This document shows positions 8,616 to 47,932 of a stretch of 64,000 nt of DNA, in pieces. This DNA is from Bdellovibrionales bacterium (GTDB lineage: Bacteria; Bdellovibrionota; Bdellovibrionia; Bdellovibrionales; DASUEL01): the NCBI GenBank assembly GCA_050250255.1, contig JBFWOZ010000011.1, positions 1 through 64,000 of the forward strand, in the 5' to 3' direction. How positions within the stretch are numbered: position 1 is the stretch's first letter; every line of letters starts with the position of its first letter. Below the pieces are notes generated by a model. That model was not told where the DNA came from and ran no database searches. It saw only the letters and a list, made by a program, of their open reading frames with translations. The translations under genes were made by a program, and so were the position numbers.

Positions 8616-9625
8616 AAAATTTTAACAAAATTCTTGTCACTGGCTGCGCAGGTTTCATTGGCTCCAATTTTTTACGTTGGGTTTTTCAAAATCAAAAAAA
8701 TGTCTCTGTCGTTCATGTCGATGCCCTCACTTATGCAGGCAATCTAGAAAATTTAGGAGAATGGCTCAAGTCTCCCCGCCATCAATTTGTGAAAGCGGAT
8801 ATTCGCGATGTTGATCAAATGAAAGCACTCGTCAAAGACGTTGATGCCGTTTTGAATTTTGCAGCCGAAAGTCATGTTGATCGTTCTATCGATGGGCCTA
8901 AAACATTTATCGAAACAAATGTGAATGGAACGTTTTCCATGCTCGAAGCCACTCGAGCTTCGAGCCGACCTATTCGTTACTTGCAAGTTTCCACAGACGA
9001 GGTTTACGGAAGTTTAGCAGACACCGGGCTTTTTACTGAAGAAACTCCGCTTGCACCCAATAGCCCCTACTCGGCTTCAAAAGCCTCGGCCGATTTACTC
9101 GTGCGCTCCTATCATCACACATTTGGACTCGATACTATTACCACGCGTTGTTCGAACAACTATGGACCTTATCAGTTTCCTGAAAAATTAATTCCTCTCA
9201 TGATTAAGAATGCCAATGAAAACCTCCCACTCCCCGTTTACGGGGATGGCATGAATGTTCGCGATTGGATTCATGTTGAAGACCATAACCGCGGAGTTTG
9301 GGCCGCTTTGACTCTTGGAAAATCAGGAGAAGTTTATAATTTTGGTTCTGACAATGAGTGGCCTAATATTGAAATTGTGAAAACGATCTTAAAAAAGTTA
9401 AATAAACCTGAATCTCTAATTAAATACGTCAAAGATCGACCAGGCCACGATCGTAGGTACGCCATTGATGCTACAAAATCCAAGAAGGAACTTGGCTGGA
9501 AAGCTCAAGTACCCTTTGAACAAGGTTTAAGCTCTACAATTACATGGTATCTAGAAAACCAGAAATGGGTTCAATCCGTCACCAGCGGTGAATACAAGTC
9601 CTTCTACAACCGCTGGTATAAATAA
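8612..9625 (+). CDS. rfbB: dTDP-glucose 4,6-dehydratase
   Basis: GCAGFIGSNF, AAESHVDRSI, STDEVYG, YSASKA, DRPGHDRRY. Confidence 0.97.
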   Translation: MKNFNKILVTGCAGFIGSNFLRWVFQNQKNVSVVHVDALTYAGNLENLGEWLKSPRHQFVKADIRDVDQMKALVKDVDAVLNFAAESHVDRSIDGPKTFIETNVNGTFSMLEATRASSRPIRYLQVSTDEVYGSLADTGLFTEETPLAPNSPYSASKASADLLVRSYHHTFGLDTITTRCSNNYGPYQFPEKLIPLMIKNANENLPLPVYGDGMNVRDWIHVEDHNRGVWAALTLGKSGEVYNFGSDNEWPNIEIVKTILKKLNKPESLIKYVKDRPGHDRRYAIDATKSKKELGWKAQVPFEQGLSSTITWYLENQKWVQSVTSGEYKSFYNRWYK

Positions 9626-46213: not shown

Positions 46214-47422
46214 TTATTTGGATTGGCCAACGATCATAACCGTATCGCCCAATTTGATCGGTACTGGGAACGCCAAGGGTTTTTCAAGCGAAGCCGGAAT
46301 CTTAAACTTTGGACTTAACATAGAAAAAACTTTTTGCAGGAAATAGCTAAAAGGCACAAGGTATGGAAAGTGCGCATGCTTCGTGAGTTTAAAGCCCGCT
46401 CTCTCGAGAGTTTCGTAATAACCGCGATCTGAGAAATAGTAGTAGTGCATATCCATAAACCATGGCCAACGCGGACCCAGAGCTTGCGAAAAACTGGATT
46501 CAATATTGATCGTTGAAAAGAGCACGTCACCACCGGGTTTTAAGAAGGGTCTTAATTCTTTCAAAGTCGTAATGGGATCTGGCAAATGTTCGATCACATC
46601 AAAAAGAACGATCGTATCGAATTGGTCTTTAAGTAATCCTGATTTTAAAAGCTTTTCGACATTTCCATTATGAAACTTCAGCTTGGGATATTTTTTTTGT
46701 GCGTACTCGGTTGCGTGGGTTGAAGGTTCAATCCCCGTGTATTGACCGGCTACGTTTTGAACGACCTCGGCAAAAGCACCGTAGTAACTTCCGATCTCGA
46801 GGACTTTTTTGTTTTCGAAGTAGCTTTGGTAATCTTTTAAAATACGACGGTAGGTCATGTGGCGAGCGGCGATGTTTTTAATGTATTCAAGATCCGCCAC
46901 ATTTTTGTAGTTTTCAAAACCTTCTTCTTTGGTTTTTTCAAAAGACTGATCGGCGATATTGATCAGAAATCCATTACGACATTCAGGGCAGTAGTAAATA
47001 TCAGGGTATTCACCGTGGTCAAAAGACGAACAGGCAAAACTTCCTTGCATCGCTTTATGTTTACGGCGAGCGGGATAGAGCAAAACGCAATGTCCATAAT
47101 CACAGATACGGCAGCGAATCCCCGTCTTTTGTTTTCGGTCATATTGACGAACAGCCCAGGCCCCTACCAAAAGAGTGGCGACCATAAAGAAATAAATGGG
47201 AATCAAAGTATCTGGAGCAAACGACCAAATCAAAACGCACAAACCCCAAAACACAAGCGAGAGAGGCAGCGCAAAGTAAAATGCGGTTTTGATTTTTAGA
47301 CGTCTGAGGAAGCTCAAAAAAATGTACATGATGTAGAGGTAAGGTATAGAGGTGAGCTTTCGGAAGATCAAACCATTCCTCGTAGAGCTTTTAACGGTGA
47401 CCACTTTTGTCGCTCGAAACAT
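46214..47422 (-). CDS. class I SAM-dependent methyltransferase with N-terminal TM helices and Zn-binding Cys pairs
   Basis: CRIC...CPEC, VLEIGSYYG, GIEPS, FDVIEHLPDP, LKPGG, HYYYFS; start uncertain. Confidence 0.85.
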   Translation of the reverse strand: MFRATKVVTVKSSTRNGLIFRKLTSIPYLYIMYIFLSFLRRLKIKTAFYFALPLSLVFWGLCVLIWSFAPDTLIPIYFFMVATLLVGAWAVRQYDRKQKTGIRCRICDYGHCVLLYPARRKHKAMQGSFACSSFDHGEYPDIYYCPECRNGFLINIADQSFEKTKEEGFENYKNVADLEYIKNIAARHMTYRRILKDYQSYFENKKVLEIGSYYGAFAEVVQNVAGQYTGIEPSTHATEYAQKKYPKLKFHNGNVEKLLKSGLLKDQFDTIVLFDVIEHLPDPITTLKELRPFLKPGGDVLFSTINIESSFSQALGPRWPWFMDMHYYYFSDRGYYETLERAGFKLTKHAHFPYLVPFSYFLQKVFSMLSPKFKIPASLEKPLAFPVPIKLGDTVMIVGQSK

Positions 47423-47568
47423 TTTTGCGTAAAGGTTTAAGACATATTAAAATGCGAGTAATTTCAATAGGTTGCGCTGCATTCTTTATGAAGTGCGCGA
47501 AACACGTATTTGACGAGAAATCATCGCCTTCCAAATCGAAATGAAGGCAAGAGGAAGTCATAAACTCG

Positions 47569-47584
47569 TGGCATTACAGTTGCT
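47569..47584 (+). promoter_or_regulatory. sigma54 (-24/-12) promoter
   Basis: TGGCATTACAGTTGCT, near consensus TGGCAC-N5-TTGCW with exact spacing; IHF-like TTTCAATAGGTTG at 47462-74. Confidence 0.75.
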
Positions 47585-47594
47585 CTAGTAAGTA

Positions 47595-47645
47595 GTAACC
47601 CCTAAGCGGCTGGTACCCCCCCCCTAAACCAGCCGCTATTTTTTT
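47595..47645 (+). ncRNA. candidate ~50-nt sigma54-dependent sRNA with C9 loop
   Basis: Predicted +1 near 47595; AGCGGCTGGT-ACCCCCCCCCTAA-ACCAGCCGCT-ATTTTTTT intrinsic terminator; no ORF. Confidence 0.6.
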
Positions 47646-47740
47646 GCCCAAAATTTGAATCGCAAGCCATGGAGAGCAGAGCTTTAGAGTTTGATTTAAA
47701 GGCCAAAATTAGTGATATTGCTTCTCTATTCAACCGTTAC

Positions 47741-47817
47741 GCGCTCCTAGCTCAATTGGATAGAGCATCAGACTTCGGATCTGAGGGTTAGAGGTTCAAG
47801 TCCTCTGGAGCGCGCCA
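47741..47817 (+). tRNA. tRNA-Arg(UCG)
   Basis: 77-nt cloverleaf: GCGCTCC/GGAGCGC acceptor, TCAGA-CTTCGGA-TCTGA anticodon arm, AGAGG-TTCAAGT-CCTCT T arm, encoded CCA; TTGATT-N17-GATATT upstream. Confidence 0.97.
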
Positions 47818-47842
47818 ATCAAAAAATAAAACCATCCATAGT

Positions 47843-47932
47843 GTGCGCTCCAGAGGTTCTACGGACTTTGTCGCCGGAAGCGACAAAGTGGGAGGACCAA
47901 GTCCTCTGGAGCGCACCAGTCGCTTCAGCGAC
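47843..47932 (+). repeat. tRNA-Arg-derived duplication (att-like 3' copy plus inverted copy, minihelix-like)
   Basis: CAAGTCCTCTGGAGCGCACCA (47898-918) matches the tRNA 3' end at 20/21; GTGCGCTCCAGAGG (47843-56) is its complement; GTCGC/GCGAC hairpins inside and after. Confidence 0.8.

Follow-up and report, generated by a model that had tools for sequence, protein, structure and literature searches.

A short RNA gene with a C-rich terminator loop and a sigma-54-type promoter is predicted across the Bdellovibrionales

Does the intergenic stretch upstream of a tRNA gene in a Bdellovibrionales bacterium encode a small regulatory RNA, and if so, how widely is it kept and what could it act on? The window, by which we mean the whole 64 000-nt stretch of DNA analyzed, comes from contig G000:C11 of a genome of 3.09 Mb with 43.7% GC. 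An initial annotation had proposed a sigma-54-driven RNA of ∼50 nt that ends in a C9-loop terminator and resembles Pxr of Myxococcus, and each of the sequence elements it listed was found in place. The region is flanked upstream by a divergent methyltransferase-like gene (46214-47422, minus strand) and downstream by a tRNA-Arg gene (47741-47817). Between them we observed a possible degenerate activator site CGTA-N9-GACA (47428..47444, plus strand), an IHF-like site TTTCAATAGGTTG with one mismatch to the consensus (47462..47474, plus), an inverted repeat seen by inspection of the letters (GCCTTC at 47526, GAAGGC at 47543) and a match to the sigma-54 (−24/−12) promoter motif, TGGCATTACAGTTGCT (47569..47584, plus). 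Placing the start 12 nt past the C of the −12 element gives a predicted sRNA of ∼51 nt on the plus strand (47595..47645). It would begin with a tail carrying a C-tract, GUAACCCCUA (47595..47604), which includes ACCCCTAA at 47598 and is predicted to be single-stranded, being unpaired in the fold. Fold and covariation then define a 10-bp stem (47605..47637, arms 47605-14 and 47628-37) that closes a 13-nt loop ACCCCCCCCCUAA with C9 at 47616-24, and the U7 tail of the predicted intrinsic terminator follows at 47639..47645, a feature seen across the family alignment. The stem of the family reads GCGRYYWGG/CCWRRYCGC, and the window copy is one pair short of it.

The predicted RNA folds as the annotation had claimed, into the C9-loop hairpin with its U-tail, at −18.5 kcal/mol (z = −5.5), a value equalled by none of 200 shuffles. 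The hairpin is missing from a terminator scan because its 13-nt loop exceeds the 3-8 nt loop limit of that scan. No plus-strand ORF of at least 20 aa covers 47595-47645, in line with the absence of an ORF stated earlier, while two short minus-strand ORFs overlap the region. By scanning the 3.09-Mb genome for sigma-54 matches that run into a C-loop terminator we found that 2 of the 22 strict matches lead into this architecture, and thereby recovered a paralogue (G000:C15, minus strand, about 8824-8908) with the same promoter, tail and stem and a C11 loop. For the neighbouring tRNA a sigma-70-like promoter had been claimed as well; a sigma-70 scan did not list it, and by eye an 8 of 12 match, TTGATT-17-GATATT, can be placed at 47691-47719. 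Directly 3′ of this tRNA lies an 83-nt hairpin (47838-47920, −46 kcal/mol, single copy in the genome) in which part of the tRNA-Arg 3′ end recurs twice, once inverted and once direct; a repeat derived from the tRNA or a scar of integration may explain it.

Next, we investigated the distribution of the element. BLAST of the region matched it in three genomes of the same order. A pattern of promoter, C6 and T5 gave zero control matches and was present in 114 of the 384 genomes of the order that were scanned; within genus g31 it was present in 38 of 44. A pattern scan of 185 579 genomes returned 105 stretches, and 88 of these are family members with the family hairpin, namely 85 that passed the filter after removal of L061 and three added by eye (L090, L110 and L149). 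The members belong to Bdellovibrio, Bdellovibrionales or related ranks, except for two that coincide with order members in place and sequence, and the named carriers include four Bdellovibrio bacteriovorus strains (L067, L124, L135 and L155). Locus L061, which has a Gammaproteobacteria title, passed the filter and was judged a chance match; it is excluded from the alignment, from the 105-locus IHF count and from the 108-locus C-tract counts given below, and is 1 of the 109 loci in the counts of inverted repeats, dyads, +1 positions, neighbour genes and orientations. From an alignment of 54 diverse copies (A1), which also served for the covariation test, we derived a model (R1) that scores the window copy at 71.9 bits. 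Of 151 Bdellovibrionales genomes sampled, R1 matched 115 (E<1e-7 in 95), and every one of the 12 other families sampled had matches; several of the weak matches within the order retain the architecture by eye. Outside the order its matches were 2 weak ones among 120 further genomes of the phylum. Of two largely identical samples of 121 genomes from the phylum of G504 and G505, one gave a single weak match, to the seed genome, and the other gave none. Myxococcota were covered by the strict pattern scan.

Some relatives depart from this pattern. At L222 (G275:C1:1674522-1675866) we observed four tandem copies of a divergent member with promoter, at a period of about 420 bp. Six further divergent members (L127, L130, L158, L214, L219 and L225) carry two tracts in a longer 5′ tail, and their short loop closes GG-UUCCCCCA-CC. 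At G261:C211:25850-25923 a sigma-54 promoter is followed by a family-type stem that lacks C-tracts; this may be a paralogue that has decayed or been retargeted.

The stem positions of A1 are paired in 99.8% of cells (slid controls: 23-55%) and 4 of the 10 pairs changed on both sides, with none of 500 shuffles as high, although such counts are inflated by the relatedness of the sequences. Since the earlier sets of loci had been selected using the promoter, we ran a search with stem and U-tail alone as a non-circular test. It found 51 sites in 50 of 101 genomes, and 50 of the 51 have a C-rich loop. At 49 of these 50 the motif GG-N9-TGC lies at the right distance upstream although the search did not demand a promoter, so that promoter and C-loop are conserved jointly, as had been suggested. 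The predicted RNAs of the 109 loci measure 49-68 nt, apart from one outlier. A 5′-tail C-run of at least 4 is present in 107 of 108 loci, a count partly demanded by the selection pattern, and the loops together contain 987 C and 18 G in 1464 nt. In 18 of 108 loops we observed CCUCCUU, the genome's own 16S 3′ end, compared to 1.7 in shuffled loops (14 of the 18 are one identical loop). A small peptide as the product was rejected, given an ATG in only 31 of 109 loci and lengths spread over all three frames. No Rfam family matched at the locus, and the small-RNA family is absent from Rfam 15. A search of the freely accessible main texts found no description of the C-loop RNA, and supplementary or unpublished sRNA lists could include one. 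Taken together, these features form one conserved unit in the order: the promoter motif accompanies the two C-tracts, the stem with its covarying pairs and the U-tail, whatever the neighbour genes. We are highly confident that this is a real, order-wide and uncatalogued sRNA gene, and the family conservation thus supports the undescribed stand-alone sigma-54-type sRNA gene that had been put forward.

For better evaluation of the promoter we analyzed the surrounding signals. The genome holds RpoN and 13 strong sigma-54 activator matches, and the predicted +1 is a G in 63 of 109 loci and a purine in 90 of 109. The RNA is likely made by the sigma-54 polymerase. In 39 of 109 loci (6.8 in shuffled sequences), mostly of one clade, a conserved dyad TGTC-N9-GACA precedes the promoter box by about 68 nt. 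The window's version at 47428-44 is weak: its matrix score of 7.3 falls between the 95th (6.3) and 99th (9.7) percentiles of random windows, which is marginal; the IHF-like site follows it closely, as in the textbook arrangement. In genus g31 (L026-L054) a second, CGACAATTGTCG-like palindrome occurs about 85-95 nt before the promoter box, beside TGTC-N9-GACA. IHF-like sites with at most one mismatch number 4680 in 6.19 M strand positions of the genome, and taken alone the IHF-like site and the 6-bp inverted repeat are at chance level. Across the family, IHF-like sites 96-175 nt upstream of the promoter box were observed at 23 of 105 loci compared to 7.5 in shuffled sequences (maximum of 17 in 200 shuffles), a band that was picked post hoc, after the upstream motifs had been counted. 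The IHF-like site of the initial annotation is therefore unremarkable by itself and modestly supported by the enrichment of its motif in the family. Read as an enhancer, the inverted repeat GCCTTC/GAAGGC did not hold up: with at most 3 mismatches it occurs in 5 of 109 upstream regions compared to 3.6 in shuffles and is not conserved. No activator motif was found in the flanks of the 109 loci (300-1500 nt as a rule). The genes behind the strict sigma-54 matches of the window genome encode mostly exported-looking proteins and include a pilin-like gene (contig C83) with a G5 Shine–Dalgarno (SD) sequence.

The conserved element might still belong to a neighbouring gene, as its leader or attenuator, or might insulate as a promoter-terminator unit whose transcript is irrelevant. 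At 71 of 89 loci a gene on the same strand does begin downstream, mostly 15-120 nt away. However, the downstream gene varies. Among 88 loci tabulated, 29 have a coiled-coil gene upstream and an amidase gene downstream, 12 show the reverse and 9 have other neighbours; the coiled-coil cluster was built by single linkage and may be loose. A tRNA follows in the window and a convergent gene at the paralogue, and in the window genome both copies lie away from the usual site, with the amidase gene on another contig. (The labels ‘amidase’, ‘RNase PH’, ‘coiled-coil’, mutL, carD, lon and pilA are by-eye readings of sequences; the names fliA, ftsZ, fliW, DksA-like gene and thymidine kinase do not come from such reading.) Because the orientation between the flanking genes flips, the arrangement argues for a stand-alone gene and against a leader of any one gene. 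An insulator would, moreover, have no need of conserved unpaired C-tracts. We also compared eight public RNA runs, as assembled contigs, with the family locus L026. Two runs of one study have long flat contigs across the element, which may be DNA, and six leave the RNA part uncovered, which is uninformative for a species of ∼55 nt. Contigs of the downstream gene from two studies (X8 and X9) start at the U-tail, as a cis element would have it, but two more runs of X9's study (X11 and X14) stop elsewhere. The public RNA contigs are compatible with both presence and absence of the transcript, and on all this evidence we regard a cis element as highly improbable.

We consider it probable that the element is a conserved stand-alone Bdellovibrionales gene for an RNA of ∼50-60 nt, likely made by sigma-54 polymerase, which likely represses translation independently of Hfq by placing its two exposed C-tracts on G-rich ribosome-binding sites. 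An enhancer-binding protein at TGTC-N9-GACA would turn the gene on at one stage of the predatory cycle, and IHF would assist in lineages with the dyad farther away. The terminator hairpin would end and protect the RNA and display the loop, and tail and loop would mask GGGGG- or GGAGG-type SD sites on a set of mRNAs, for which fliA, ftsZ, mutL and exported proteins are predicted candidates only. In the one genome searched, which is 99% complete, neither Hfq (control positive in 5 of 14) nor ProQ (1 of 14) was found; KhpA is present. In its unpaired parts the RNA is rich in C and has almost no G, and the loop of one clade reads CCUCCUU. GGGGG peaks 4-8 nt before ATG in the window genome, and a site with at least five G occurs at 119 of 2777 crudely called genes (4.3%). 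By a rough heuristic, genes with a G-run SD are richer in signal-peptide proteins (60/119 compared to 283/880, p = 1e-4), and such an SD is found at 4 of 27 listed genes with a sigma-54 promoter (p = 0.03). An accessibility-aware ranking of the 2777 genes as targets placed fliA 4th, ftsZ 13th, fliW 17th and a DksA-like gene 23rd. The gene it puts first (G000:C22, minus, 12763) codes for an uncharacterised protein of 212 aa whose N-terminus is rich in lysine; a long tract of G lies 17-28 nt ahead of its start codon.

The comparison between genomes gave results in both directions. Between the window genome and 2.4 Mb of the carrier G049, mutL and ftsZ came first among 457 orthologue pairs. In the pairs of these two distant carriers, sites with at least four G are shared with an odds ratio of 3.1 (p = 0.005), compared to 1.6 for AGGAG (p = 0.058). 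G-run SDs relative to AAGGAG were not commoner in carriers (median 0.27, n = 28) than in non-carrier members of the order (0.26, n = 3) or in genomes from outside it (0.31, n = 67), with 98 of 151 rows entered and the first 67 of 120 rows as the outgroup. A G-run of at least 4 at fliA was observed in 15 of 19 carriers outside g31, in 0 of 9 g31 genomes, in 2 of 3 non-carriers and in 4 of 18 outgroups. For ftsZ, 5 of the 7 carriers compared had the G-run, as did 6 of the 15 outgroups; this comparison had no order member lacking the RNA. The results against target specificity are as strong as those for it. At the fliA start of g31 (L265-L273) we observed GAGGG...AUGGGG in 7 of 9 sequences and AUGGCG in the other two; GAGGG...AUGGGG is antiparallel-complementary to the CCCUC of the g31 loop and the CCCCAU of its tail, so that two-site pairing is possible there.

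The same lack of specificity in the fliA, ftsZ and G-run SD tests fits a real RNA that serves as decoy or ligand of a C-preferring protein, such as a KH-domain protein (KhpA/B) or Rho, bound by the stem and the C-tracts, with mRNA pairing secondary. Rho and some KH proteins do prefer C, KhpA is encoded in the genome, and the stem letters are near-invariant across the order (G-C pairs in 51-54 of 54 sequences at five positions). The stem sequence is conserved beyond what a terminator would require, a hint at a protein partner. However, ∼50 nt is short for a Rho loading site, and the 16S tail CCUCCUUA spelled in the loops of some lineages fits SD pairing better than poly-C binding; we consider the protein decoy unlikely. 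The redundancy of the two C-tracts and the lack of a clear conserved target among mRNAs would also suit a sponge or antidote directed at another RNA whose loops are G-rich, instead of a regulator of mRNAs, but accessible G-runs are found at the start sites of many mRNAs, and this explanation appears quite improbable to us. Pairing with SD sequences is the mode that we infer to be best supported, by its chemistry and by the precedents sX13 and RepG, with all targets candidates only.

The tiny RNA gene is conserved throughout an order of predators, including culturable B. bacteriovorus strains, and its predicted RNA is too short for standard RNA-seq. With a single gene to delete, and with both a sigma-54 enhancer and a seed predicted, its part in the change between attack and growth is directly testable, and the RNA would add to the few sRNA systems in bacteria without Hfq and ProQ.

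Among known systems, the RNA shares conserved C-rich motifs, predicted to be single-stranded on a stable stem, with sX13 and RepG, a likeness of functional kind and not of sequence family. According to the available text on sX13 of Xanthomonas, that RNA carries single-stranded C4/C5 motifs and represses, independently of Hfq, mRNAs with G-rich motifs near their start codons, in a host where about 5% of genes have a G-rich ribosome-binding site (PMC3771888), close to the 4.3% given above for the window genome. sX13 differs in its length of 115 nt, its three stem-loops and its polA locus, and no sigma-54 promoter is described in that text (PMC3771888). Compensatory mutations in sX13 failed to restore regulation (PMC3771888), and therefore even the precedent is not simple pairing. 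RepG of Helicobacter pylori, as far as the available account goes, binds a G-run with a C/U-rich terminator loop that alone suffices for repression (PMC8295292), and a C-rich terminator loop is likewise the predicted pairing region of the Bdellovibrionales RNA. The sRNAs found in print for B. bacteriovorus, on the available text, are APsRNA1-7 and merRNA, eight attack-phase sRNAs of 98-655 nt (PMC3627812), and a 261-nt hit-locus sRNA (PMC3818213). They come from the same genus, are intergenic and non-coding and have been proposed to act in the switch between attack and growth (PMC3627812, PMC3818213), which is an open question in Bdellovibrio. In contrast to the order-wide C-loop RNA of ∼55 nt, which is not among these nine in the text available (PMC3627812, PMC3818213), they are attack-phase or FliA-linked and species-limited, not being conserved beyond the species.

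Pxr of Myxococcus xanthus, to which the locus had been likened, is described in the available texts as an RNA of 108 nt with three stem-loops and with long and short processed forms, which gates a developmental switch, is located beside and downstream of pxrK/pxrR, is driven by PxrR and is confined to Cystobacterineae (PMC5684412, PMC5568312, PMC11928866). Both RNAs have a predicted sigma-54 promoter, a host without Hfq and, going by those texts, tandem paralogues. The C-rich loop ascribed to Pxr is indeed there, a C7 run in SL1 (UUCCCCCCCA), and the short loop GG-UUCCCCCA-CC of our divergent members is close to the tip of SL1. What did not carry over from ‘Pxr-like’ is the rest of the architecture: one hairpin and 49-68 nt compared to three stem-loops and ∼108 nt in the texts available, the C-loop in the terminator instead of SL1, and no neighbouring activator gene. 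RF01812 (Pxr) gave no match at the window, in 14 family loci or in the genome, whereas two true pxr loci scored 129.2 bits as the control. PxrR found no support as the activator, its best genome match being 43% identical (others 41-47%), with no distinct helix-turn-helix match, no PxrR neighbour and no clear orthologue, though a distant one may exist. The Bdellovibrionales RNA is not a member of Pxr. Distant kinship is conceivable: model R1 scored Pxr at 12.2 bits (E = 0.17) and unrelated GC-rich hairpins of the same pattern at up to 18.7 bits, while the 5′ terminator arm GCGGCCCGG of Pxr, part of its SL3 stem with a conserved 8-bp core, agrees with the consensus of our family, without any shift, at 8 of 9 letters, a level reached by none of 96 other strong terminators of the window genome. 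One could speculate that the RNA is an order-wide switch of the predatory cycle, a condensed Pxr cousin with the C-loop moved onto Pxr's terminator stem, in which one sigma-54 signal yields an anti-SD decoy that silences the class of G-rich SDs (FliA, FtsZ, pilin and exported predation proteins). We hold this to be doubtful; if true, myxobacterial development and bdellovibrio predation would share one ancestral RNA gate.
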